A stretch of 64,000 bases of DNA, taken from positions 523 through 64,522 of the forward strand of contig JAZQGY010000015.1 in the NCBI GenBank assembly GCA_045540295.1, in the 5' to 3' direction. Positions 7,356-63,524 of the stretch are shown here, in pieces; within the stretch, counting starts at the first letter, position 1; each line of letters starts with the position of its first letter. Origin of the DNA: Clostridia bacterium. Its GTDB lineage: Bacteria > Bacillota > Clostridia > UMGS1840. Position numbers and translations under genes: made by a program. The notes beneath the pieces are model-generated. The model had not been told where the DNA came from. It saw only the letters and a program-made list of their open reading frames with translations, and did no database searches.

Positions 7356-8528
7356 TTAGCCTTTGGGTAATTCCACGCGGGTTTCGTTGAAAATAATACG
7401 AACCACGATGGCAGCTGCTTCGCTTCGCTTAATCGGGTCAAAAGGATGGAAGCTCATGGTGGTGTCTCCCACGGCCACGCCACGGTCATACAGCTCTAAA
7501 ATTTCGATGGCGAAGGGAGTATTTTCATCCACGTCGGGAATATCGGTAATGGGAACTTCGTTAGGATAGAAGTTGGTGGCATCTGCACGGCAGAATAGAT
7601 ATGCCATCTGTGCACGGGTGATGGGAGCCTCCCAATCAAACATCATGCCTTCTTCTATTACATAATGTTCATAGCAATAGTCCACATAGGGAGCATACCA
7701 GGGACCGGTGGTTTGTTTATCAATGGTCTGTCCGTTGAACATTGCAGCAATACTTGCCGCAATTTTGGCAGCTTCTCCGCAGGTCATGGTAGCATTGGGG
7801 TCAAAGGTTTCCGCACCTTTCCCGTTTAAAATGCCCACATTATATGCCACATCTACATACTGATTAAACCAATCGGCATTTGTTACATCAGTGAAAGGAT
7901 GTCCCAACAGTCCCGGATATCTGGTTTCGGCGTAACCGCAGCCAAGACAAACCGAAACAGGAAGCTGATAATCTCCTCGCTGCTCCACGGTATCTTCCGA
8001 AACCCAATGAATCAGCTCCACGGAAAAGTCCCAGTCTCCTTTCGCCTCATAGAAGGCATTGTGAAATGCTTCCACATCGGTGGTGCAATAAATATGCGCC
8101 GTAATATAGGGGGTATTGTAAAACGCTTTTTCGCCAAAAGCGGGAATAGAATCTCTGTCAAAGAAAAAGATTTCGGATAAGTTTTCGCAGTTCATAAAGG
8201 CACTGTCACCAATTTCGGTAACTGTGGGTGCAAAATCTACAGAATCCAGATTAGAACCCTCAAAAGCGCTATTACCAACGGTGGTTACACCCGGTTCCAT
8301 ATAAACACTTTCCAGTCCTAAATCAAAAAATGCTTTTTCGCCAATGGAGGTAACGGGAACCCCGTCCACCTCGGAAGGGATATATACAAAGCTTTCGCCA
8401 AAGTAGGAAGTGATTTCGCCTTGGGGAGTGATTTCAAACTCAATCGGTAAGTATTCCTCTGAAAACACACTGCCTGCCATAGAAACCATTAAAATCACTG
8501 CAAGTATCAGGGAAAGAATTTTTTTCAT
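7356..8528 (-). CDS. Secreted BspA-type leucine-rich-repeat protein with C-terminal SLH-like repeats
   Basis: Signal peptide present. LRR_5-like repeats (IGEKAFF.., VGNSAFEG.., IGDSAFMNC..). SLH-like segments (FTDV..W...V..A...GILNG....F.P). Confidence 0.6.
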   Translation of the reverse strand: MKKILSLILAVILMVSMAGSVFSEEYLPIEFEITPQGEITSYFGESFVYIPSEVDGVPVTSIGEKAFFDLGLESVYMEPGVTTVGNSAFEGSNLDSVDFAPTVTEIGDSAFMNCENLSEIFFFDRDSIPAFGEKAFYNTPYITAHIYCTTDVEAFHNAFYEAKGDWDFSVELIHWVSEDTVEQRGDYQLPVSVCLGCGYAETRYPGLLGHPFTDVTNADWFNQYVDVAYNVGILNGKGAETFDPNATMTCGEAAKIAASIAAMFNGQTIDKQTTGPWYAPYVDYCYEHYVIEEGMMFDWEAPITRAQMAYLFCRADATNFYPNEVPITDIPDVDENTPFAIEILELYDRGVAVGDTTMSFHPFDPIKRSEAAAIVVRIIFNETRVELPKG

Positions 8529-23612: not shown

Positions 23613-25127
23613 TTACAGGTCTTTTTCCTGTTCTTCCTGAATATCGGGGAACACAGACAGCATAGGTTTTACATCTTTCCCTTTTAACCGTCTGTCCACA
23701 TAGTTTCTGGTAATTTTGATAACCAATCCGGATAATGCCAGCACACCAATTAAGTTGGGCACCATCATTAAGCCGTTAAAGGTGTCGGAAATATCCCAAG
23801 CTAAGGAGGAGGTGAGCAGAGCACCTGCCATAATGGTTGCTAAATGAAGCAGCTTATAAATCAGTTTGGTTTTTTCACCGAATAAGTATTCCCAAGCTTT
23901 GGAGCCGTAATGATCCCACCCTAACACAGTGGTGAATGCAAACAGTAAAATGGCGATAGCAATAAACTGTTCCCCAAGCACACCAAATACGCCTGAGAAA
24001 GCTTTTGCCACTAAGGTTGCATCGGTAGTGCCTGCTGCTAAGGCACCGGTGTCTAAGTTAATCATACCGGAGGTTAATACCACCAGTGCGGTCATGGTAC
24101 AAACAATCATGGTATCTGCAAACACTTCAAAAATACCCCAAAGGCCCTGTCGAACAGGTTCCTTTACGTTGGAGTTACTGTGCACCATTACAGAAGAACC
24201 AAGACCTGCTTCGTTGGAGAATACGCCACGTTTACAACCCTGGGTTACAATATCCTTCACCACAATACCGCCAACGCCGCCCAATGCTGCAGGCACTGTG
24301 AACGCATAGCGGAAAATAGAAGCAAATGCAGCTCCGATTAACTGATAGTTGCAAGCAATTACCACAATACTTCCGCCTACAAATAAAACCACCATAAAAG
24401 GAACCACTTTTTCTGCAAATGAAGCAATTCTCTTTAACCCGCCGACAATGATTAACGCAGCAATCACCAAAAGAACAATACCAACAATCAAATGATAAAC
24501 GGAAACGCCGGGATAAAGCAGCTGAGAGGACAATGCAGGAATATCAAATGCAGAAACTACATTGACAACAATTTTGTTGATCTGCCCCATAGCTCCAATC
24601 CCAAAGGATGCCAAAATGGCGAAAATGCTAAATAAAATCGCTAAGATTTTACCAATCCACTTGCAGCCTTTCATCTTGCCAAGACCGTCCTCTAAGTAGT
24701 ACATGGCACCGCCGGACCATTCGCCTTCTTTATTTTTTCTGCGGAAGAAAATTCCTAACACATTTTCGGAGTAGTTCGTCATCATCCCGAAAAATGCTGC
24801 AATCCACATCCAAAACACTGCTCCGGGACCCCCTGCAACAATTGCAGTGGCAACCCCCGCAATGTTACCAACACCAATGGTGGCAGCCAAAGCAGTGCAA
24901 AGTGCCTGGAACTGAGAAATGGATTTTCCTTTTACCTTCCCGGAAACATCTTTTGTGAACAGTTTTCCTAAGGTTTCGGAAAACCAGTGTTTGATATGAG
25001 TAATCTGAAATACGCCGGTAATTACGGTAGTTACAACACCGGTGAGAAGCAAAAGATATAACCCTTTGCCCCAGACGAAACTGTTAATTTCGCCGTTAAA
25101 CCAAGTAAGCCAATTGAAAAAATCCAT
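23613..25127 (-). CDS. Alanine/glycine:cation symporter (AGCS family)
   Basis: SQFQALCTALAATIGVGNIAGVA signature. Start at ATG 25127, behind GGAAGGG; the track ORF starts at GTG 25151. It is preceded by a glycine riboswitch. Confidence 0.85.
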   Translation of the reverse strand: MDFFNWLTWFNGEINSFVWGKGLYLLLLTGVVTTVITGVFQITHIKHWFSETLGKLFTKDVSGKVKGKSISQFQALCTALAATIGVGNIAGVATAIVAGGPGAVFWMWIAAFFGMMTNYSENVLGIFFRRKNKEGEWSGGAMYYLEDGLGKMKGCKWIGKILAILFSIFAILASFGIGAMGQINKIVVNVVSAFDIPALSSQLLYPGVSVYHLIVGIVLLVIAALIIVGGLKRIASFAEKVVPFMVVLFVGGSIVVIACNYQLIGAAFASIFRYAFTVPAALGGVGGIVVKDIVTQGCKRGVFSNEAGLGSSVMVHSNSNVKEPVRQGLWGIFEVFADTMIVCTMTALVVLTSGMINLDTGALAAGTTDATLVAKAFSGVFGVLGEQFIAIAILLFAFTTVLGWDHYGSKAWEYLFGEKTKLIYKLLHLATIMAGALLTSSLAWDISDTFNGLMMVPNLIGVLALSGLVIKITRNYVDRRLKGKDVKPMLSVFPDIQEEQEKDL

Positions 25128-25169
25128 GTTTTTTCCCTTCCTTTTTTTCACAAAATAATAAAAATATAT

Positions 25170-25244: not shown

Positions 25245-25436
25245 TGACTGTTTCTCCGTCCTTTTGCCTGAGAGATTAGCCCACATGGGGCTTTACACCT
25301 TCGGCATCCTTAATCTTTTCCTGATTTTCTTCGGGAAAAGGGACTTCTCCGGAGCGCTATCCGTTTGCAGTCTTTGCTAAAAGCGCCTGAGAGCATTACT
25401 CCTTCGGCAAGGCATTCGCCTTTCTCCTGCATCCTT
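25245..25436 (-). promoter_or_regulatory. Tandem glycine riboswitch
   Basis: Minus sense: GCAGGAGAAAGGCGAATGCCTTGCCGAAGGAGTAATGCTCTCAGGCGCTTTTAGC...CTCCGGAGAAGTCC...GATGCCGAAGGTGTAAAG...CTCTCAGGCAAAAGGACGGAG. That is two GGAGA..CCGAAGG..CTCTCAGGC..A aptamers. Confidence 0.88.
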
Positions 25437-25467
25437 CACTTAGCACAATATGCATTTGTCTTCGGGC

Positions 25468-46103: not shown

Positions 46104-47288
46104 ATGCAGTATCACATTTCTGACAATATGAAAACCATGCAGGGTTCTGCCATCCGTGAAATGTTTAAAACCATGGCAAAACCCGGCATTATCTCTTTTG
46201 CGGGAGGAAATCCCTCTCCTTTGACATTCCCTGTGGATGAAATTAAAGAAATCGCAGAGAGAGTACTTACCGAAATGCCTTCTTTATGCTTGCAGTACGG
46301 CATCACCGAAGGCTACACTCCCTTAATTGAGCAGGTGGAAGCCCGCTTAAAAAAACAGGGTATTTATCGGGAAGGATGTAACACGATTATTACCACCGGC
46401 GGTCAGCAGGGATTGGATCTGGCAGTAAAAAGCATCCTAAATCCCGGTGACACCATTATTGTGGAAGAACCCAGCTTTATCGGTGCGTTAAACTCTTTTC
46501 GTACCTACGGTGCCGTGTTAAAGGGCGTTCCCGTGGCAGAAGACGGTATGGATATGGAAAAACTGGAAGAAATTTTAAAAAGTGATGACCGTGTTCGCAT
46601 CATTTATGTGATTCCCACTTTCCAGAATCCCACCGGCATTACCATGAGTTTAGAAAAAAGAAAGAAACTGCTTTCCTTAGCTTATCAGTACAATGTGGTG
46701 ATTTTTGAAGATAACCCCTACGGCGAACTTCGTTTTAAAGGGGAAAACGTGCCCACCTTAAAATCTATGGACGAAGAAAATGCGGTGATGTATTTTGGGT
46801 CCTTCTCCAAAATTTTAGCACCGGGCCTTCGTTTGGGCTTTACCCACGGGATTCCTCAGATTATGGAAAAAATGGTGGTGGCAAAGCAGGTAAACGACGT
46901 GCATACCAACCTGTTAACTCAGGTCATCGCCTCCGAATGGCTGAAAACCTGCGACATTGATACCCACATTCAGAAAGCAAGAGAGCTTTACGGTCATCAG
47001 TGCGACTTAATGCTCTCCGAAATGGACAAACATTTCCCCAAAGAAGTTACCTATACCCGTCCCGAAGGCGGACTTTTCATCTGGTGCACCTTACCCCAAG
47101 GAATGGATGCGGCAGGTATTGTGAAAAAAGGGGTGGAAAAGAATGTTGCCTTTGTGCCCGGTTCCAACTTTATGACCGATATGACAAAACCCTGTAACTG
47201 CTTCCGCTTAAACTATTCCACTATGACCGACGACAAAATTGTGGAAGGTATCGGCATCTTAGCAGACGTGCTGAAAGAAAATTTGTAA
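46104..47288 (+). CDS. PLP-dependent aminotransferase (class I/II, MocR/LysN-like catalytic domain only)
   Basis: GGNPSP, NPTG and SFSKILAPGLRLG (PLP lysine) motifs. Confidence 0.8.
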   Translation: MQYHISDNMKTMQGSAIREMFKTMAKPGIISFAGGNPSPLTFPVDEIKEIAERVLTEMPSLCLQYGITEGYTPLIEQVEARLKKQGIYREGCNTIITTGGQQGLDLAVKSILNPGDTIIVEEPSFIGALNSFRTYGAVLKGVPVAEDGMDMEKLEEILKSDDRVRIIYVIPTFQNPTGITMSLEKRKKLLSLAYQYNVVIFEDNPYGELRFKGENVPTLKSMDEENAVMYFGSFSKILAPGLRLGFTHGIPQIMEKMVVAKQVNDVHTNLLTQVIASEWLKTCDIDTHIQKARELYGHQCDLMLSEMDKHFPKEVTYTRPEGGLFIWCTLPQGMDAAGIVKKGVEKNVAFVPGSNFMTDMTKPCNCFRLNYSTMTDDKIVEGIGILADVLKENL

Positions 47289-47294
47289 TTTGCG

Positions 47295-47400
47295 GTTTGA
47301 TAAATGGCGCATAATTCGTTAATCTCACCGCTCGCAGTACACACAAGTACAGCTTCGGGTTCGATTAGCAAATTCTGCATCCATTTCCCTTCACCTTAGG
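47295..47400 (+). repeat. R1 modular 3'UTR element
   Basis: GTTTGATAAATGGCGCATAAT..AATCTCACCGCTC GCAGTACacacaaGTACAGC TTCGGGT..ATTCTGCATCCATTTCCCTTCACCTTAGG. Confidence 0.85.
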
Positions 47401-49717: not shown

Positions 49718-49720
49718 GAC

Positions 49721-49850
49721 GGCTTGATAAATGGCGCATAATGAATGAACCTCACCGCTCGCCGTACACGCGGTACGGCTTCGGGTAACCACCTTCGGTG
49801 TTCGGTTTCTTCATTCTGCATCCATTTCTCTTCGCCTTGGATAGAGGTTT
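49721..49850 (+). repeat. R1 modular 3'UTR element (best-preserved copy)
   Basis: GGCTTGATAAATGGCGCATAAT gaatg AACCTCACCGCTC GCCGTACacgcgGTACGGC TTCGGGT AACCACCttcGGTGTT CGGTTTCTTC ATTCTGCATCCATTTCTCTTCGCCTTGG. The terminator at 49875-49905 follows. Confidence 0.88.
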
Positions 49851-50953: not shown

Positions 50954-51250
50954 ACTAAAAAATTCCTTTTCTGTTAAGATGCAAAGCTCTCCCCGACCAG
51001 AAGCTGATGAGGGATTTTGCACTGATGTTTTCATGAATTGTTGCATCGGCAACATGATTTAAATTGCCTTTTCATGCACTTTTTTGCAATTCATAAGCCG
51101 TAAGGCATTCTTCATGAAATCTTTGATTTCAATTCATGCCGAAGGCAATTCATTGATTTCATCCTTAATGAAATCATTCTATCATATGAAATAAAAAAAT
51201 ACAAGTAATTCTCCCAAAAAAGTCGTGTCTTGTTTTGTTACCGTTTCTTT

Positions 51251-51290
51251 TGTCGAAAAGTTTTTCGATTTCTTCTCGGTTCCCGACAGA
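51251..51290 (+). promoter_or_regulatory. Spo0A-box-like sites upstream of spoIIE
   Basis: A perfect 0A box TGTCGAA at 51251-51257, with weaker TTCGATT at 51264 and CCCGACA at 51282. A TGcTATACT -10-like element lies at 51317-51325. Confidence 0.45.
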
Positions 51291-51364
51291 TTGCAACACC
51301 TTTTTCAGAAAACCTGTGCTATACTGATAAAAATTGGAAAAATTTGGAAAAAGGAGTGACTGCC

Positions 51365-53788
51365 GTGAGTCTGATTACCCGAAAAAAAGAATCCGTCAAA
51401 AAAACCGTACCGAAAAAGGAACACCGGGAAATAGAAACAAAAGAAGCAAAAGAACCAAAAGAACCAAAAGAAGCGAAAGAGCCCAAGGAAGCACAAAAAC
51501 TAAAAAAAGCAAACCAATCAAAAGAACAAAACAGACCGAAAAGAATAAAAAACCGAAAGAATTTGTTTTGGCAAGTCTGTGTGGGGTTATTACATTTCTT
51601 TTTATCTTTCTTTTTAAGCCGGACAAGTCTGTTTTTCGGAATGGCACCCTTTGGGGGCGCAATTCTTCTGGCAACAGGCGGAAGTGTTGCCTCCTATGTG
51701 GGAGCAATGCTTGGAAGCTATACGCTTGGGGGTTATGACACCATGGGTGCATTGACCGCTTGTTTTCTTCTAAAACAATTGCTTCGGGCTGAGCGGTGGG
51801 ATCCTCTTCTCATCTTTGTTTCCTTTGGAAGTGTGTTCACAGCGGTGCTTTTGGGGTCTTCTCCCCTCCCTTGGGACGTGATTGTAAAAGTGGTTTCCCT
51901 GCTTTTTACCCTGTCTTCTTATTACATACTAAAAAAGGCATACCGCGCTCAGTTTGTGAAGTCGCCCCAACTGAAATTCACCAAGGATGAAGGATACTGC
52001 TCGTTATTCTTGCTGTTTGCCCTGCTTTCTGGTATTCGCTCGGAAACAGTGGTTTTTTTAGTAAGGTTTCATGACGTCCTCACTTTTTTTGTCATCGCCC
52101 GTGCCGCTTACAGCTTTGGTATCGGCGGAGGTGCCGCAACGGGTGCCATACTGGGGATGCTTTCCGGACGGACAGCAGAGTTTGCCACTCTTTCTATGTC
52201 GGTGTATTCCCTCTTTGGTTTTTTTACGGGAATTTTTTCAAAATTCAATAAGTTTACTGCCTTTCTGGGTTTTCTGTTTTCCTATGTGTTTGCCGCAGCT
52301 TACTTTCCTCAAACGGCGAATCTTGTTTCTTATCAGGATATTTTGTGGGCGGGTATTTTGTTTTTGCTCTCGCCTGACGGATTGATGGAGCCATACTTAG
52401 ACCGCTATCGGGAAGGAACTCCTGTGGCAGACAGAGTTGCCTCGGAGAATCAGATTACCATCGGCAGATTAGACCGTCTTGCCAAGTCCTTTTCCGGATT
52501 ATCTGTGGAAATTGGGCGTCATGAGAAGCAGTTTTGGAATTTATCGTCTGTCAGCGAGCAAACCCTTTATGATTTTGTGGGAGACAGACTTTGCCGTGGC
52601 TGCAGTCTAAAACGTTCCTGCTGGCAGGAGCATTTTTCCGAAACTTCCGAAGGCTTGACGGCAGGAATGAACCGTTTGGTAAAAGTTGGAACTCTCTCCA
52701 AAAAGCATTTGCCCGAAGGTATTCGGAATCGGTGCGTCAGAGGGGACAAGCTCATAGAAACGCTGACGGGCTTTTTTGAAATTTCTCGCCTGAATGCGTT
52801 CTGGAAACACCGTCTTGCGGAAAACACCCACGCTTTTCGGGAACAGTTTTTAGAGCTTTCAGACATTATCTGCCAACTGAAAAAGAATATGGAAACCAAC
52901 CGTTATTTTGACGCTCCCTTATCTGCAGAGCTATACAGTGCATTGGGAAATGAGGGGTATCTGATTCGTGAGGCATCTGTGTTTCACTCGGCAGAGGACC
53001 AATATCTGGTAAAGCTGGGGATGTCACCCTGTAAACATGGGGAAAACTGTTTTCCCACCGTGGAGAAAATCGCTACTGAACTATTGGGCGTTCCCATGAC
53101 GGTTACCGAAGGCGCCTGCGGACGTCGGCTTTGCAATTTGCTTTTAACCGAAGGAGATTTGGGGAACGTGGAACAGCGGATTCAGAGTTTTTCCAAAAAG
53201 GAGGGAGACCCCTCCGGGGATAGTCATATCGTTTCCCGGTTAAGCCGTCATCGCTACTTAATGGCGCTCTCCGACGGAATGGGGAGTGGCGGGAAGGCAA
53301 ACCAAGTGTCTTCCTCAGTTGTTACATTATTAGACGAGATGCTTCGGGCAGGATTTTCGGAGACTTCCGCCTTTTCGATGCTAAACTCCTTTTTAATTGC
53401 CTCTTCTTCAGCATCTGCTACCCTGGATTTTGCCATTGTGGATTTGAAGAAAATGACGGCAACCGTTTTAAAAACCGGTGCTTGCCCCACCTATTTAAAA
53501 CGGGGCGAGGAAGTAATTGCCGTAGGGACAGACTCTCTGCCGGCAGGAATCCGTCCCAAAAAACCGTATCAAAAAACGCTTCACCTATGCCATGGGGATA
53601 TGCTTTTTCTGATTTCCGACGGTGTGGCAGATGCTCTCCCCGAGAAAGATTGGGTATACAGCGCTCTTTGTAAATATCCATCCTCCCACCTTTCGGAACA
53701 TGTGGACTATCTGGCATCGGTGTCTTATGAGGCAAGTCGGGAAACTCCCGATGATATTACGGTGCTGGGACTAAAAATTTTGCCGTAG
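51365..53788 (+). CDS. spoIIE: Stage II sporulation protein E (membrane PP2C phosphatase)
   Basis: A charged KEAKEPKEPKEAKEPKEA N-terminal tract, about 10 TM helices, and a C-terminal PP2C domain (GDSH..MALSDGMGSG..FLISDGV..DDITV). The GTG 51365 start is inferred from AAGGAG; the track ORF begins at 51230. Confidence 0.85.
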   Translation: MSLITRKKESVKKTVPKKEHREIETKEAKEPKEPKEAKEPKEAQKLKKANQSKEQNRPKRIKNRKNLFWQVCVGLLHFFLSFFLSRTSLFFGMAPFGGAILLATGGSVASYVGAMLGSYTLGGYDTMGALTACFLLKQLLRAERWDPLLIFVSFGSVFTAVLLGSSPLPWDVIVKVVSLLFTLSSYYILKKAYRAQFVKSPQLKFTKDEGYCSLFLLFALLSGIRSETVVFLVRFHDVLTFFVIARAAYSFGIGGGAATGAILGMLSGRTAEFATLSMSVYSLFGFFTGIFSKFNKFTAFLGFLFSYVFAAAYFPQTANLVSYQDILWAGILFLLSPDGLMEPYLDRYREGTPVADRVASENQITIGRLDRLAKSFSGLSVEIGRHEKQFWNLSSVSEQTLYDFVGDRLCRGCSLKRSCWQEHFSETSEGLTAGMNRLVKVGTLSKKHLPEGIRNRCVRGDKLIETLTGFFEISRLNAFWKHRLAENTHAFREQFLELSDIICQLKKNMETNRYFDAPLSAELYSALGNEGYLIREASVFHSAEDQYLVKLGMSPCKHGENCFPTVEKIATELLGVPMTVTEGACGRRLCNLLLTEGDLGNVEQRIQSFSKKEGDPSGDSHIVSRLSRHRYLMALSDGMGSGGKANQVSSSVVTLLDEMLRAGFSETSAFSMLNSFLIASSSASATLDFAIVDLKKMTATVLKTGACPTYLKRGEEVIAVGTDSLPAGIRPKKPYQKTLHLCHGDMLFLISDGVADALPEKDWVYSALCKYPSSHLSEHVDYLASVSYEASRETPDDITVLGLKILP

Positions 53789-57297: not shown

Positions 57298-57394
57298 GCT
57301 TGTAAAAGAACACAGACCACAAAAAAGCAACATTTTTTATAGCCTTCCCCTTGAGGGGAAGGTGGCAAAACCGTAGGTTTTGACGGATGAGGTG
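57298..57394 (+). repeat. R3+R2 composite immediately 3' of pyrH (twin of 27561-27655)
   Basis: GGCTTGTAAAAGAACACAGACCACAAAAAAGCAACATTTTTTATAGCCTTCCCCTTGAGGGGAAGGTGGCAAAACCGTAGGTTTTGACGGATGAGGTG. Confidence 0.85.
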
Positions 57395-57402
57395 TCATTT
57401 TT

Positions 57403-57549
57403 CAAAGTGAAAATTGTTTGCAACAATTTTAGATTGTAATTGCTTTTTTGTTACGAACAAACTTCACCTCTCGGCGTACCTGTGTACGCCTTCGGGTAAC
57501 CCCTACGGGTTCAGTTTGTCCGTTCTGTGCCCTTTTCCTGCACCTTAGG
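57403..57549 (+). repeat. R1 element, B-subtype
   Basis: AAAGTGAAAATTGTTTGCAACAATTTTAGATTGTAATTGC.. AAACTTCACCTCTC GGCGTACctgtGTACGCC TTCGGGT AACCCCtaCGGGTT ..GTTCTGTGCCCTTTTCCTGCACCTTAGG. Confidence 0.8.
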
Positions 57550-57680
57550 CAGCGGCATAATAAACGACGCCAAATGGATGAACCTCATCACTCGGCGTAC
57601 AGCACGTACGCCTTCGGGCTCGTCAAGGCGTTGCCTTGATTCGATTTGTGAATTCTGCATCCATTTCTCATCACCTATGG
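57550..57680 (+). repeat. R1 element, A-subtype, directly abutting the previous copy
   Basis: ..AACCTCATCACTC GGCGTACagcacGTACGCC TTCGGGC TCGTCAAGGCgtTGCCTTGATTCG ..ATTCTGCATCCATTTCTCATCACCTATGG. Confidence 0.8.
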
Positions 57681-57841
57681 TGAGAAAGAATGTTTAGAGA
57701 ATCAACCAAGATATATTAACAAAAGAACCAAAAAACCGTAAGGATTCTAAAGATAAAATCCTTACGGTTTTTCAAGGAAATTTTTTGATTTTCCAATCCC
57801 GAAAAAATGTAGAAATATACGAAAAAACCAAGAAAAAATCA

Positions 57842-58036: not shown

Positions 58037-58054
58037 GTGCTTTTTTTGAAAGAA

Positions 58055-59116
58055 ATGTACTTAATTCTGGAAAATAAAACAGTTTTCAAAGGCAAAAGCT
58101 TTGGTGCTTACCGTGAAGCGGTAGGCGAACTGGTGTTTTCCACCAATATGCTTGGTTATATGGATACCCTGACCGATCCTGCAAACTTCGGTCAGCTTGT
58201 GATTTCCACCTTCCCCGAAATGGGTTGCCACGGCACCATCGCGGAAGAAATGGCAGGAGAAAAGGCATCCTGTTTTGGTTATATTGTGAAAGATTGGTGT
58301 CAGTCACCGTCCAACTGGCGTATGGAGGGTGATCTTGACACTTTTTTAAAGGAAAAAGACATTCCGGGAATTTACGGCATTGATACCAGAAAGCTGACGA
58401 AAATGGTTCGTGATGCCGGCACTATGAATGCCAAAATTTCCTTTACCCCCGACTTTACCGATGATATTGCAACCTATAAAATTGTGGATGCGGTAAAATC
58501 CGTGTCCGTCCCCGAAAAGATTACCTCTATGGGTAAGGATGCCAAATATCGCGTAGTGATGTGGGATTTTGGTGCCAACAACAATATGATGAAGGCATTT
58601 TTAGATGCAGGCTGTGATGTGACCAAAGTGCCTTACAACACCCAGGCAGAAGAAATCATCGCAATGCGTCCCGACGGAGTGATTTTATCCGGAGGTCCCG
58701 GGGATCCCACCCAGTTAATTGACGTGATTACCGAAATCCGCGGGATAAAAGACATTCCCACCTTGGGAACCGGGCTGGGGCATCAGCTTTTGGCATTATC
58801 TCAAGGTGCGAAAATAGAAAAATTGAAATTCGGCCACCGTGGTGCATCCGTTCCTGTTCGGAACGAAACCACCGGAAAAGTGTATATTTCCTCTCAGAAT
58901 CACAGCTACCAGGTGGTAAACGATTCTGTAGAATCCTTTGGGAAGGTTTCCTATCGCAATGTGAATGACGGCACCGTGGAAGGCATTGACTATGCCAACA
59001 TTCCTGCCTTTTCCGTGCAGTTTAACATTGAAAGTTTCTCCGAGCCTATGCATCCGGGCTTCTTGGTAGACAGATTTGTAGAAATGATGGAGGGAAAAAA
59101 AGATGCCGTTAAATAA
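58055..59116 (+). CDS. carA: Carbamoyl-phosphate synthase small (glutaminase) subunit
   Basis: A GIDTRKLT motif and a GATase domain (the usual catalytic GxCxG position reads GTGLGHQLL here). The start could be ATG 58055 or GTG 58037. Confidence 0.85.
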   Translation: MYLILENKTVFKGKSFGAYREAVGELVFSTNMLGYMDTLTDPANFGQLVISTFPEMGCHGTIAEEMAGEKASCFGYIVKDWCQSPSNWRMEGDLDTFLKEKDIPGIYGIDTRKLTKMVRDAGTMNAKISFTPDFTDDIATYKIVDAVKSVSVPEKITSMGKDAKYRVVMWDFGANNNMMKAFLDAGCDVTKVPYNTQAEEIIAMRPDGVILSGGPGDPTQLIDVITEIRGIKDIPTLGTGLGHQLLALSQGAKIEKLKFGHRGASVPVRNETTGKVYISSQNHSYQVVNDSVESFGKVSYRNVNDGTVEGIDYANIPAFSVQFNIESFSEPMHPGFLVDRFVEMMEGKKDAVK

Positions 59117-62100
59117 GGAAATCAAAAAAGTATTAGTAATCGGATCAGGCCCTATCATCATCGGTCAGGCAGCAGAGTTTGACTATGCAGGTACCCAGGC
59201 TTGCCGCGCCCTAAAGGAAGACGGTCTGGAAGTGGTGCTGGTGAACTCCAACCCTGCAACCATTATGACCGATAGCAAGATGGCAGACAAAATCTATATT
59301 GAACCTCTGACCTTGCCTGTTATCAAAAGAATTATTGAAAAAGAAAAGCCGGACAGCCTGCTCTCCACCTTAGGGGGACAGACCGGGTTAACCTTATCCA
59401 TGCAGTTGGCAAAGGAAGGCTTTTTGGACAAGCATAACGTAAAACTTTTAGGCGCAAATCCCGAAACCATCGACAAAGCGGAAGACCGCCAGATGTTTAA
59501 GGATATGATGGAAAAAATCAATCAGCCCGTCATTCCCTCTAAGGTTGTAAATACCTTAGAAGATGCACTGGCTTTTGCACACACCATCGGCTATCCTTTA
59601 ATTATCCGTCCTGCCTTTACCTTAGGGGGTACCGGCGGCGGTATTGTCAACAATGAAGAAGAAATGATTGAGATTACCACCAACGGTCTGCGTCTTTCTC
59701 CCATTACCCAGGTTTTGGTAGAAAAATGTGTGTCCGGTTGGAAAGAAATCGAATTTGAAGTAATTCGTGACAGTAAGGGCAACTCCATCACCGTCTGCAG
59801 TATGGAAAACTTAGACCCCGTTGGGGTTCATACCGGTGACTCTATCGTAATTGCGCCGGCAGTTTCCTTATCTGATTATGAGTATTCCATGCTCCGCCGT
59901 GCAGCTTTGGATATTTTAAATGAATTAAAAATTGAAGGCGGTTGTAACTGTCAGTTTGCCTTAAATCCCGATAGCTTTGAATATGCGGTTATTGAAGTAA
60001 ACCCCAGAGTTTCCCGTTCCTCCGCATTGGCATCCAAAGCAACCGGTTATCCCATCGCAAAGGTTGCGGCAAAAATTGCCATCGGCTATCAGTTAGATGA
60101 AATTTTAAATGCAGTAACCGGCAAAACCTACGCTTGCTTTGAACCTGCCATTGACTATGTGGTAGTAAAATTCCCCAAATTCCCCTTCGATAAATTCGTG
60201 TATGCGAAACGTGACTTGGGAACCCAGATGAAGGCAACCGGGGAAGTTATGGCAATCGGCGCCACCTTTGAAGAAGCTATTATGAAAGCCGTTCGCGGTG
60301 CAGAAATTTCCAAGGATTCTATGCGTCATAAAGACTTGGTTGGTCTTTCTGACGATGTGATTATGGAAAAACTTCACCAGTGCAACGACGAGCGAATTTT
60401 CGTGGTGTATGAAGCCATTACCCGTGGCGTATCTATTGATACCATCTATGATATCACCAAAATTGACCGTTGGTTCTTATCCAAACTGGCAAATATTTTC
60501 AAAATGGAAAGCCGTTTAAAAGAAGAAACCTTAACAAAAGAACTTCACTTAGAAGCCAAGAAAATGGGCTTTTTGGATAAGGTTATCGAAAGACTGTCGG
60601 GCCAAAAAATTCCCGAAAAAATCTATGCATCCTATAAGATGGTAGACACCTGTGCCGGTGAGTTTAACGCTCAGACTCCCTACTTCTACTCTTCCTATGA
60701 GGAAGCCAACGAAGCAAGAGAGTTTATCGACAATAACCCCACCGACAAGAAAACCGTTATTGTATTCGGTTCCGGCCCCATCCGAATCGGTCAGGGGATT
60801 GAGTTTGACTATGCCTCTGTTCATTGTGTATGGGCACTGCAGGAGGCAGGCTACGAAGTGGTGATTGTGAACAACAACCCGGAAACTGTTTCCACCGACT
60901 TTGACACTGCAAACCGTCTGTATTTTGAACCCTTGAATCCCGAAGACGTCATGAACGTTATTCATACGGAAAAACCCTATGGCGTGGTAGTTGCTTTTGG
61001 TGGCGGTACTGCTATCAAATTAACCAACTTCCTCCAGGAAAACGGTGTTCGCATTTTGGGTACCGGTGCAGACAGTATTGATATGGCGGAAGACAGAGAA
61101 CGGTTTGACGATCTTCTGGAACGTTTAAACATCAAACGTCCTCAGGGCTTTACTGTGTTAACCGAAGAAGAAGCGTTGGAAACTGCAAACCGTATCGGTT
61201 ATCCCGTTTTGATTCGTCCCTCTTATGTATTGGGCGGTCAGAATATGATTATCGCCTGGAATGATTCCGATACCAAGGAATATATGAAGATTATTCTTCA
61301 CGGTCTGGACGAAAATCCCATCTTAATTGACAAATATTTAATGGGTACCGAAATTGAAGTGGATGCCATCTCCGACGGGGAAGACATTTTAATCCCCGGT
61401 ATTATGGAGCATATTGAGCGTGCAGGGGTTCACTCCGGTGACTCAATTGCGGTTTATCCGGCATTCAATTTAGATGTTCCCATGATTCAAAAAATCATTG
61501 ATTCCACCAAAAAACTGGCAGTTGCCTTAAATACCAAAGGTTTGGTAAACATCCAGTATTTGGTGTATGACAATGAATTATATGTCATTGAAGTAAATCC
61601 CCGTTCCTCCCGTACCGTTCCCTACATCAGCAAGGTTACCAAAGTTCCCATGATTGACCTGGCAACCCGTGCAATGCTGGGCGAAAAATTAAAGGATATG
61701 GGTTACGGCACCGGTCTTTACAAAAACTCTCCTTATGTGGCAGTAAAAGTGCCTGTGTTCTCCTTTGCCAAACTCTTGGGCGTGGATATCCACTTAGGAC
61801 CTGAAATGAAATCCACCGGGGAAGTTTTGGGCATTGGTGCAAACTTAGAAGAAGCACTGTATAAAGGGTTAATTGCAGCAGGTTACAAACTGCAGAAAAA
61901 AGGCGGCGTATTCATTTCCGTAAGAAATTCCGACAAAGCGGAAATCTACGGCGTGGCAAAAGGATTTTATGATTTAGGCTTCACCGTGTATGCAACTCAC
62001 GGTACCGCCAAAATTTTATCCGATGCAGGAATTCCGGTAATTCCTGTGGATAAAATTCACGAAAATGCCGAAAACAATACCTTAACCTTAATTGAAAGCG

Positions 62101-63146
62101 GAAAAGTAAACTTTGTTGTTTCTACCTCTGCAAAAGGCAGACTGCCGGAACGTGACAGTGTAAAAATCAGAAGAAAAGCAGTAGAAAGAAGCGTTCCCTG
62201 CTTCACCTCTATTGATACCGCAAATGCTGTTATTAACTCCATGAAGGGAAAATATTCTGAAGCTAGCATCGAAATTGTGGATATCAACAATATGCGTGAA
62301 GAAAAAATCGCAGTAGAATTCACCAAGATGCAGAGCTTAGGAAACGACTATATCTATTTTGACTGCTTAAATAAACAAATTGATAATCCGGAAGCTTTGG
62401 CTATCCGTCTCTCCGACCGTCACTTCGGCATCGGTGCAGACGGTGCGGTAGTCATTGAAGCTTCCAAAACCGCAGATGCGAAAATGAGAATTTTCAATTC
62501 CGACGGTACCGAAGGCAGAATGGGCGGTAACGCCATCCGTTGCGTTGGTAAATATCTGTATGACAAGGGCATCGTTCCACGCGAAGATATGGAAATTGAA
62601 ACCTTGAGCGGTGTGAAAAAGCTGAAGGTGTATCCCTTGGAAGGGGAAGTTGTGGCAGCTCGTGTGGATATGGGCAAGGCAGAAACCAAGCCGGAGCTTG
62701 TTCCCGTGGTTTCCGATAAAGAAATCGTGAAAAACGAACCCATTACCGTGGCGGGAGAAGAATTCCATGTGACCTGTGTGTCTGTGGGCAATCCCCATGC
62801 GGTCGTATTTACCGACAATTTAGACACCGTGGATATGCAAAAAGTTGGTCCCGAATTTGAATATCATCCCATGTTCCCCGACAGAGTGAATCTGGAAGTG
62901 GTTACCGTAATTGATAAAAACACCTTGAAAATGCGTGTTTGGGAACGTGGTATTGGCGAAACTTTAGCGTGCGGAACCGGTGCTTGTGCAGCAGCCGTTG
63001 CAGCAATCTTAAACGGTTACTGCGAAAAAGATACCGACATCACCGTGAAGCTTCCCGGTGGCGACTTAAAAATCCGTTACACAGATTCGTCCATTCAAAT
63101 GACTGGACCTGCAGTGAAATCCTTCGAAGGTAAGGTATCTATCTAG
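59103..63146 (+). CDS. carB: Carbamoyl-phosphate synthase large subunit fused in frame to a diaminopimelate-epimerase-like domain
   Basis: Residues 1-1063 are a complete CarB: two ATP-grasp halves and an MGS-like domain ending ..IEIVDINN. Residues 1064-1347 (from ATG 62292) read MREEKIAVEFTKMQSLGNDYIYFD...ERGIGETLACGTGACAA.., which is the DapF fold. No stop codon separates the two parts. Confidence 0.8.
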   Translation: MPLNKEIKKVLVIGSGPIIIGQAAEFDYAGTQACRALKEDGLEVVLVNSNPATIMTDSKMADKIYIEPLTLPVIKRIIEKEKPDSLLSTLGGQTGLTLSMQLAKEGFLDKHNVKLLGANPETIDKAEDRQMFKDMMEKINQPVIPSKVVNTLEDALAFAHTIGYPLIIRPAFTLGGTGGGIVNNEEEMIEITTNGLRLSPITQVLVEKCVSGWKEIEFEVIRDSKGNSITVCSMENLDPVGVHTGDSIVIAPAVSLSDYEYSMLRRAALDILNELKIEGGCNCQFALNPDSFEYAVIEVNPRVSRSSALASKATGYPIAKVAAKIAIGYQLDEILNAVTGKTYACFEPAIDYVVVKFPKFPFDKFVYAKRDLGTQMKATGEVMAIGATFEEAIMKAVRGAEISKDSMRHKDLVGLSDDVIMEKLHQCNDERIFVVYEAITRGVSIDTIYDITKIDRWFLSKLANIFKMESRLKEETLTKELHLEAKKMGFLDKVIERLSGQKIPEKIYASYKMVDTCAGEFNAQTPYFYSSYEEANEAREFIDNNPTDKKTVIVFGSGPIRIGQGIEFDYASVHCVWALQEAGYEVVIVNNNPETVSTDFDTANRLYFEPLNPEDVMNVIHTEKPYGVVVAFGGGTAIKLTNFLQENGVRILGTGADSIDMAEDRERFDDLLERLNIKRPQGFTVLTEEEALETANRIGYPVLIRPSYVLGGQNMIIAWNDSDTKEYMKIILHGLDENPILIDKYLMGTEIEVDAISDGEDILIPGIMEHIERAGVHSGDSIAVYPAFNLDVPMIQKIIDSTKKLAVALNTKGLVNIQYLVYDNELYVIEVNPRSSRTVPYISKVTKVPMIDLATRAMLGEKLKDMGYGTGLYKNSPYVAVKVPVFSFAKLLGVDIHLGPEMKSTGEVLGIGANLEEALYKGLIAAGYKLQKKGGVFISVRNSDKAEIYGVAKGFYDLGFTVYATHGTAKILSDAGIPVIPVDKIHENAENNTLTLIESGKVNFVVSTSAKGRLPERDSVKIRRKAVERSVPCFTSIDTANAVINSMKGKYSEASIEIVDINNMREEKIAVEFTKMQSLGNDYIYFDCLNKQIDNPEALAIRLSDRHFGIGADGAVVIEASKTADAKMRIFNSDGTEGRMGGNAIRCVGKYLYDKGIVPREDMEIETLSGVKKLKVYPLEGEVVAARVDMGKAETKPELVPVVSDKEIVKNEPITVAGEEFHVTCVSVGNPHAVVFTDNLDTVDMQKVGPEFEYHPMFPDRVNLEVVTVIDKNTLKMRVWERGIGETLACGTGACAAAVAAILNGYCEKDTDITVKLPGGDLKIRYTDSSIQMTGPAVKSFEGKVSI

Positions 63147-63285
63147 GCTCGATAAATGGCGCATAATCCGTGAATCTCACCGCTCGGCGTACCGTTATGC
63201 TGTACGCAGTACTACGGCTTCGGGCTTGTCAAGGCGTTGCCTTGATCTGATTTCTCCATTCTGCATCCATTTCTCATTGCCTTAC
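63147..63285 (+). repeat. R1 modular 3'UTR element directly after the carB-dapF stop
   Basis: GGCTCGATAAATGGCGCATAAT ccgtg AATCTCACCGCTC GGCGTAC..GTACGC.. CTTCGGGC TTGTCAAGGCgtTGCCTTGATC ..ATTCTGCATCCATTTCTCATTGCCTTAC. Confidence 0.85.
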
Positions 63286-63361
63286 ATCAGGTCAAATGAT
63301 AAAAGACGAAATTCTTTCGCAAAAAGCAAAGAATTTCGTCTTTTTTTTGGTACGGGCGAAA

Positions 63362-63477
63362 GCCTTCTCCTCGAGGAGAAGGGGGACCGCTTGCGGTGGA
63401 TGAGGTGGCAAGATGCGAAGAATGTTATATAACACCTCATCAGTCACTTCGTGACAGCTTCCCCTCAAGGGGAAGCC
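63362..63477 (+). mobile_element. Miniature (116 bp) two-ended derivative of the DUF559 element
   Basis: GCCTTCTCCTCGAGGAGAAGGGGGACCGCTTGCGGTGGATGAGGTG, then 25 nt, then CACCTCATCAGTCACTTCGTGACAGCTTCCCCTCAAGGGGAAGCC. Confidence 0.7.
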
Positions 63478-63524
63478 TATCAGAACAGAGCTTCTCTCCT
63501 ACAATTTTTTCTTCTAAAAAATAC

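Follow-up and report, generated by a model that had tools for sequence, protein, structure and literature searches.

Carbamoyl-phosphate synthetase (CPS) is known to occur in longer polypeptides: in eukaryotic CAD and fungal URA2 it is fused to other enzymes, and the CAD partners, dihydroorotase and aspartate transcarbamoylase, catalyze the reactions that follow CPS in its pathway. Diaminopimelate (DAP) epimerase, DapF, works with two cysteines that form an acid/base pair. Replacing either one with alanine in Corynebacterium glutamicum DapF (C83A and C221A) led to an almost complete loss of activity (PMC5296763), and in E. coli DapF both the C73A/C217A variant and the Y268A variant, the latter a monomer, are inactive (PMC6061791). 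E. coli DapF also binds and activates RppH (PMC6061791). Here we analyze a carB gene that runs in frame into a DapF-like module (carB::dapF). It lies in a 64,000-nt stretch of a Clostridia bacterium genome (GCA_045540295.1, contig JAZQGY010000015.1, positions 523 to 64,522 of the forward strand), to which we refer in full as the window. As in CAD and URA2, the CPS chain here carries further enzyme sequence at its C-terminal end; unlike in CAD, the added domain comes from an unrelated pathway, that of lysine and peptidoglycan. The parts of the locus are as follows.

58037–59116, + strand: carA, glutamine-amidotransferase small subunit of carbamoyl-phosphate synthetase (NF009475, 359.9 bits; cut-off 221)
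59089–59094, + strand: Shine–Dalgarno (SD) sequence GGAGGG, 8 nt before the true start ATG 59103
59103–63146, + strand: carB::dapF fusion open reading frame (ORF), 1347 amino acids (aa) plus TAG (ORF and domains; exact protein in public assemblies)
59103–62270, + strand: CarB proper, residues 1–1056, with two preATP-grasp/ATP-grasp halves, the oligomerization domain and the MGS-like domain (Pfam, NCBIfam; alignment with E. coli CarB 1A9X/1BXR)
61944–62207, + strand: MGS-like allosteric domain, residues 948–1035 (Pfam)
62271–62297, + strand: conserved CarB tail E-I-V-D-I-N-N-M-R, residues 1057–1065, which holds the internal ATG 62292 (low column entropy)
62298–62318, + strand: 7-residue linker, residues 1066–1072, of fixed length and variable sequence (entropy; no insertion or deletion in 81/81 sequences)
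62319–63143, + strand: DapF-fold module, residues 1073–1347 (TIGR00652; AlphaFold2 (AF2) model; ratio of nonsynonymous to synonymous substitutions (dN/dS) 0.067 within the genus)
62523–62525, + strand: Gly1141 codon, at the position of the first catalytic Cys (Haemophilus influenzae/E. coli Cys73; alignment to solved DapFs)
62970–62972, + strand: Cys1290 codon, second catalytic Cys (Cys217 equivalent), kept (alignment, translation)

A preliminary description of the locus had reported a 1347-aa in-frame chain made of a CarB, complete through its MGS-like domain, and a DapF-like part, and it was right on both counts. The ORF listing gives a single frame on the + strand, with an ATG start and a TAG stop at 63144–63146. 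When we inspected the sequence from 62100 to 62460, this frame stayed open over the junction (..GAT ATC AAC AAT ATG CGT GAA..), with neither a stop codon nor a frame change. Pfam assigned to the ORF the full CarB set (two CPSase_L_D1, two CPSase_L_D2, CPSase_L_D3 and MGS at residues 948–1035) and, on the same chain, two PF01678 DAP_epimerase stretches corresponding to two lobes. The NCBIfam equivalog models agreed: CarB model NF003671 scored 1504.7 bits on residues 1–1050 (cut-off 599), TIGR01369 reached 1454.2 bits on the 1347-aa protein (cut-off 1027), and DapF model TIGR00652 reached 280.3 bits (range 280–285) on residues 1072–1345 (cut-off 114.65). A Chlamydia-type bifunctional DapF/MurI was considered and rejected, as NF038284, the model for bifunctional DapF/glutamate racemase, gave 109–114 bits, far under its cut-off of 350.

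The upstream half of the locus resembles E. coli CarAB (1A9X, 1BXR, 1CE8) both in its full domain order and in having carA directly upstream with overlapping stop and start: the 3′ end of carA shares 14 nt with the start of carB::dapF, and a carA homologue lies 5′ of the fusion in 51 related loci. Ser948, Lys954, Thr974, Thr977 and Lys993 (E. coli numbering), which we take to be the site for uridine and inosine monophosphate (UMP/IMP), are likewise conserved in the alignment with E. coli CarB. Unlike the E. coli chain, which ends nine residues past the aligned region, the protein here continues for 281 residues more with a DapF fold. Aligned to solved DapFs, this module shows the two-lobed fold at full length with ∼50% identity (best relatives 2OTN, 234 bits, and 9MRO, 233 bits). 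For the C-terminal 447 residues, AF2 modeling gave a mean predicted local distance difference test score (pLDDT) of 85.9 and a predicted template-modeling score (pTM) of 0.67; pLDDT was mostly 80–97 over the DapF module and 60–69 at the junction.

CarB–DapF is a conserved, old, single-chain family. A protein search with the C-terminal 447 residues, which cover the allosteric domain and DapF, returned 7999 proteins at E ≤ 1e-10, and the best 120 all carried MGS and DAP_epimerase on one chain. When GTDB was scanned with one genome per species, at least 565 Clostridia species genomes were found to carry the fusion, so it is not peculiar to this genome. The 81-sequence comparisons below comprise the window and the best 80 of these at least 565 loci. 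Across the best 80, the match was unbroken over the junction and the genes were fused (80/80), and stop-to-stop frames spanned 1345–1408 codons in every related locus uncut by a contig end. One frame, the tail ELVDINxMR and the 7-residue linker were common to the window and 80/80 loci. Long carB orthologues, which the preliminary description had proposed to look for in relatives, were thus present throughout, and the separate carB and dapF genes in close relatives that, by its own criterion, would have refuted the fusion were not encountered, close and distant relatives all being fused.

Carriers include Oscillospiraceae, Ruminococcaceae (including Ruminococcus), Acutalibacteraceae, Christensenellaceae, Syntrophomonas, Desulfosporosinus and Peptococcaceae; among the cultured ones are Papillibacter cinnamivorans DSM 12816, isolates DFI.7.65 and SL.2.15, and Neglectibacter. 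The nearest relatives are seven species-level metagenome-assembled genomes from ruminant and deer guts (L001–L007), which share 89–98% identity with the window and belong with it to one genus, and the next relative, L008, shares 67%. The simplest history would be that the fusion arose once in the ancestor of a large Clostridia group and was then inherited. A full-text literature search found no description of a CarB–DapF fusion or of natural Cys-less DapFs. The earlier remark that no description of the fusion was known thus stands for the papers searched but not for databases, where thousands of members are present under automatic names: NCBI calls them ‘carbamoyl-phosphate synthase large subunit’, and fragments ‘diaminopimelate epimerase, partial’.

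The fusion itself is widespread and uncharacterized; the unexpected part is a repeated, selectively maintained loss of catalytic cysteines. In the window, Gly1141 (‘GRMGGNAIRC’) aligns with the first catalytic Cys (‘..CGNG.RC’) of 2OTN, 9MRO and 8QZY, and the second catalytic Cys is kept as Cys1290 in ‘ETLACGTGA’. The module thus resembles DapF (TIGR00652; 2OTN of Bacillus anthracis, 9MRO, 8QZY, and 1BWZ/2GKE of H. influenzae) in its two-lobed fold, DAP contacts and second Cys, and it differs from free DapF in being attached to CarB and in having an incomplete thiol/thiolate pair. As the two-thiol dyad is incomplete, we file the module as ‘DapF fold, catalytic dyad incomplete’ and not as a functional DapF. 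The full-length DapF of the preliminary description accordingly stands as a fold but not as a complete catalytic unit, the glycine having been overlooked there. All eight genomes of the genus have Gly at this position.

Globally, the first catalytic position of the 81 fused proteins is Cys in 58, Gly in 14, Ser in 5 and Ala in 4. The second Cys is replaced in seven (7/81), by Ala in a four-member Syntrophomonas/Desulfosporosinus group and by Ser in L042, L074 and L080. On a neighbor-joining tree built from the CarB part only (65 sequences), variants without a catalytic Cys fall into at least eight separate clades, and the 23 sequences without the first Cys stem from at least seven independent lineages. 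We also surveyed the best 150 DapF representatives at 50% clustering, counting those of ≤310 aa as free-standing. Both cysteines were present (Cys/Cys) in 118/125 free-standing representatives, with the exceptions being mostly fragments, and in only 20/25 of the longer (fused) ones. Similarly, the free-standing DapFs of the Neglectibacter/Acutalibacter clade were Cys/Cys in 120/120 cases. Loss of a catalytic Cys is mostly a feature of fused DapFs.

The ligand pocket did not share this fate. The DAP-binding residues, which we take to be Asn11, Asn64, Asn157, Asn190, Glu208 and Arg209 of H. influenzae DapF, are present in the window as N1081, N1132, N1230, N1263, E1281 and R1282 and are invariant in 81/81 sequences, including all 23 without the first Cys. 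The position of the E. coli dimer-interface residue Tyr268 is Phe or Tyr in every aligned sequence, an aromatic residue as in E. coli DapF. Within the window's genus, at a synonymous divergence (dS) of 0.4–1.3, dN/dS was 0.067 for the DapF module, 0.029 for CarB and 0.042 for the MGS allosteric domain. The module showed 0.05–0.09 in other Cys-less lineages versus 0.03–0.22 in Cys/Cys lineages, indicating that selection was not relaxed after Cys loss; we therefore rejected the idea of a decaying pseudo-domain. The lowest values, 0.028–0.038, came from species pairs with dapL ≤400 nt after the fusion.

In the Syntrophomonas/Desulfosporosinus group (L009, L014, L015 and L024), both catalytic Cys are replaced (by Ser and Ala) and Arg78 is changed to Thr. 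These four proteins keep all DAP-binding residues at a module dN/dS of ∼0.09, which makes the group the clearest candidate for a module that works without thiols. The first Cys is also lost, to Ala, in the homologue of the cultured P. cinnamivorans DSM 12816 (WP_084235607.1 / UniRef100_A0A1W2CRZ2), a 1346-aa protein of the same architecture and junction with 58% identity over the C-terminal 447 aa. This organism belongs to another lineage, and its protein carries automatic names only (‘Multifunctional fusion protein’ in UniRef); our literature search found no experimental work on it.

Downstream of the fusion, dapL, encoding LL-DAP aminotransferase, is the commonest neighbor (15 loci; TIGR03542 536 bits, cut-off 365) and often begins 4 nt past the fusion stop or overlaps it; pyrG follows the fusion in six loci. 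All loci with a downstream dapL are Cys/Cys (15/15), and dapL was found in 0/16 non-Cys/Cys loci with enough downstream sequence (Fisher p = 0.02, kinship ignored). Examples of dapL after the fusion in Cys/Cys relatives are:

L008:2596–3777
L013:7369–8589
L020:7342–8568
L038:7344–8501
L060:7345–8547, and others

L008 is the closest outgroup to this genus; its module is Cys/Cys and its dapL overlaps the fusion stop, which implies that the genus lost both the first Cys and the dapL linkage. We consider an origin by read-through next to dapL most likely, given that dapL still follows the fusion so closely in these 15 relatives: a carAB operon would have been read through into an adjacent dapF–dapL operon.

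We conclude that translation begins at ATG 59103, behind the SD sequence and coupled to that of carA, and gives one polypeptide of ∼150 kDa, whose CarB part would act as an ordinary CarA-dependent CPS. For the Cys/Cys relatives, especially the dapL-linked ones, the sequences suggest that the module is most likely a working LL-DAP to meso-DAP epimerase. There, the fusion would mainly tie epimerase expression to CPS, as a co-expression device; because the CPS and DAP pathways share no intermediate, channeling is not expected. Two coupled enzymes, as originally proposed for this locus, are therefore plausible in Cys/Cys relatives with dapL and may be the wrong picture here, where the first Cys is lost. 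In this genome the first thiol is Gly, dapL is not adjacent, and both pocket and selection are kept, from which we infer a thiol-independent role. With moderate confidence, we propose that the module is here no longer a conventional epimerase but a DAP-binding, probably dimerizing appendage on which CPS depends. Such dependence would concern stability, oligomeric state or regulation, and meso-DAP, if needed, would come from another gene outside the window (a free dapF or meso-DAP dehydrogenase).

Several points weigh against this proposal. Neither the 64-kb window nor the 10 kb that follow the fusion in a genus relative yielded a second dapF or a gene for meso-DAP dehydrogenase (ddh). The invariant binding residues could reflect fold stability and not ligand binding, and Gly at the Cys73 position might admit water or another base, allowing residual or altered catalysis. 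The test that associates dapL with the cysteines takes no account of phylogeny. Furthermore, the AF2 model of the MGS plus DapF fragment contained no confident docked interface between DapF and the allosteric domain, which leaves physical regulatory coupling unsupported by the modeling.

Some of these points are shared by the possibility, which we regard as unlikely, that the protein is bifunctional here too and the cell's sole DapF, with the Gly1141 module epimerizing by means of Cys1290 and water or another second base. The TIGR00652 score well above the equivalog cut-off, the intact substrate-binding residues and second Cys, the strong purifying selection on the module and the absence of another dapF from the window and from the 10 kb downstream in the relative would all fit such an enzyme. 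It is difficult to reconcile, however, with the near loss of activity upon Ala substitution at either catalytic Cys (PMC5296763, PMC6061791). Moreover, the fused clade with Ser and Ala has zero thiols and is under equally strong selection, which a thiol mechanism cannot explain; full-length free-standing DapFs almost never lack a Cys; and no Cys-less locus shows the dapL linkage.

To the same degree improbable is a structural remnant, a module that the CarB chain needs for nothing but its folding or solubility and that has no ligand or regulatory role. The fixed-length junction and the conserved CarB tail would suit a structural dependency, and the repeated loss of catalytic Cys implies that catalysis is dispensable. 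In a pure scaffold the pocket should be free to drift, though, whereas the six polar DAP-contacting residues are invariant in 23/23 sequences without the first Cys, from at least seven independent lineages, and dN/dS is as low as in the catalytic lineages.

A further proposal, which we consider somewhat less probable again, is that the module of the Cys-less lineages acts as a ligand-sensing pseudoenzyme on CPS that binds LL- or meso-DAP and alters the allosteric domain or the oligomeric state. It would close on DAP as DapF does and pass the signal on through the short fixed linker, the dimer interface or both, so that the supply of pyrimidine and arginine precursors would be coupled to the pool of cell-wall and lysine precursors. 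For a non-catalytic role of the module, including the appendage that we favor, the E. coli DapF–RppH pair is a precedent, as there a DapF fold influences a second enzyme through protein contact, independent of epimerization. That DapF is free and fully catalytic and its partner is an RNA pyrophosphohydrolase, whereas the module here is covalently joined to CPS.

We also considered whether the two parts are functionally separate, a free DapF-like protein arising by proteolysis or by initiation at the internal ATG 62292. An in-frame ATG does lie near the domain boundary and is an ATG in 59/81 homologues. The remaining 22/81 have a Leu codon (CTG 12, CTT 5, CTC 3, TTG 2), including eight CTT or CTC codons unable to initiate. 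An SD core was found 5–18 nt before the junction Met codon in 0/81 sequences, as opposed to 59/64 homologous fusion genes with an SD core before the true start; the absence of an SD sequence before the internal ATG, already remarked on in the preliminary description, thus extends to the whole set. Nor does the position of the ATG fit a former dapF start. The alignment with E. coli CarB reaches window residue 1057, equivalent to E. coli residue 1064 of 1073, which places Met1064 (ATG 62292) in the CarB C-terminal tail, and DapF homology begins at residues 1071–1073 (F1073-x-K-M) and not at Met1064. The DapF part assigned from ATG 62292 therefore keeps its full-length fold but loses 62292 as its old start. 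The junction is also rigid in length: a 40-residue segment across it has zero insertions or deletions in 81/81 sequences. Within this segment, the tail E-L/I-V-D-I-N-x-M-R has a column entropy of 0.1–0.9 bits except at x, and linker residues 1066–1072 have 1.5–3.0 bits, followed by the invariant DapF F-x-K-M..G-N-D-Y. We therefore rejected internal initiation at ATG 62292, and regard separate products as very improbable. The open frame, the SD pattern and the Leu codons at the junction support one fused polypeptide as the product, as first suggested.

A sequencing or assembly error that erased the carB stop codon, raised in the preliminary description and favored by prior plausibility only, can be dismissed almost with certainty, since the identical 1347-aa protein is present in several independent assemblies and sources and 80/80 related species genomes are fused at a dS between them of up to >1. 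Indeed, an NCBI assembly contains exactly this 1347-aa protein, and clustering at 90% places it in a group of 25 proteins drawn from NCBI, ENA, JGI and Logan; of the 15 that are listed, 14 have a length of 1347 aa and one is an 1100-aa partial. Full-length fusion clusters range from 1345 to 1355 aa. Matches of 445–783 aa, with a recurring length of 735 aa, had suggested a split carB of which only the C-terminal half is fused to DapF. This was rejected: the one 735-aa match examined, P0027 (‘CarB C-half + DapF’), adjoins a 100-N scaffold gap inside carB (L081:4742–4841). Many other short matches carry the NCBI flag ‘partial’, and similar fragmentation probably lies behind them.

Free and fused dapF genes can coexist in one genome, as seen in three genomes where the fusion is followed by a free-standing dapF of the Cys/Cys type:

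L065 (Neglectibacter), 7420–8271: free dapF, 54 nt past the fusion stop
L072 (Acutalibacter), 7420–8271: free dapF, 54 nt past the fusion stop
L073, 9312–10154: free dapF, ∼1.9 kb past the fusion stop

In the fused copy of these free-dapF genomes (Neglectibacter/Acutalibacter type), the N-terminal motif SACSNDY replaces G.GNDY, and there is an insertion. Within the window's genus, a search around the fusion that covered the whole 64-kb window, the 6 kb that follow the gene in L004 and the 10 kb that follow it in L082/L083 found no second dapF, no dapL and no ddh, and the downstream genes in L004 and L082/L083 are unrelated to DAP. The downstream ORFs of L004 (344, 315, 458 and 296 aa) are presumably gpsA-, corA-, miaB- and parA-like, as read from their sequence; in L082/L083, PfkB, GH26, an AspAT-like aminotransferase, PPK2, DegV and UvrB follow. 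Two aminotransferases, at window 46104–47285 and L083:9000–10196, were considered and are not DapL.

Other features of the window concern its repeats and a few genes away from the fusion. A dispersed intergenic repeat of ∼120–150 nt (72–90% identity) occurs at window 57540–57700, 63147–63300, 49720–49838 and 47299–47396, and holds the hairpin GTCAAGGC-GTT-GCCTTGAT. Three copies start 1–11 nt past the stop codon of a gene, two flank the carA–carB::dapF unit in direct orientation, and related copies adjoin the fusion gene in the genus relatives L002–L005. Searched against Rfam, the repeat matched no family at the gathering threshold; it may be a genus-specific terminator-associated element or one resembling repetitive extragenic palindromic (REP) sequences. 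Outside the two operon-flanking copies sits an inverted pair of GC-rich hairpins (CCTTCCCCTTGAGGGGAAGG-like) at window 57334–57367 and 63452–63485, 85% complementary. A tandem glycine riboswitch with two RF00504 aptamers (43 and 41 bits) lies at window 25246–25439 (− strand), upstream of a 512-aa ORF at 23613–25151 (− strand). At window 51230–53788 (+ strand), a SpoIIE-like protein scored 331 bits with TIGR02865, under the cut-off of 490.8; the organism may be a spore-former or the descendant of one.

Although a very large proportion of the Clostridia of guts and anaerobic digesters possess the fused gene, it is annotated as plain ‘CarB’ or ‘DapF, partial’. Metabolic reconstructions based on product names will therefore miss the DapF module where it is probably the only epimerase, and for genomes of the present kind they may infer, wrongly, a DapF activity from a module with a broken dyad. 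The family amounts to a natural experiment, in which catalytic Cys were lost at least eight times and the ligand pocket was kept under strong selection. Its cultured members, such as P. cinnamivorans and Neglectibacter, make the transition from an enzyme to a binding domain on a central metabolic enzyme testable. If the module still epimerizes, it would challenge the two-thiol mechanism. If instead it regulates or stabilizes CPS, carbamoyl-phosphate synthesis would be subject to a form of control that is new, and as a pseudoenzyme the module would provide a textbook enzyme with a new allosteric input, an enzyme reused as a regulatory domain after fusion.

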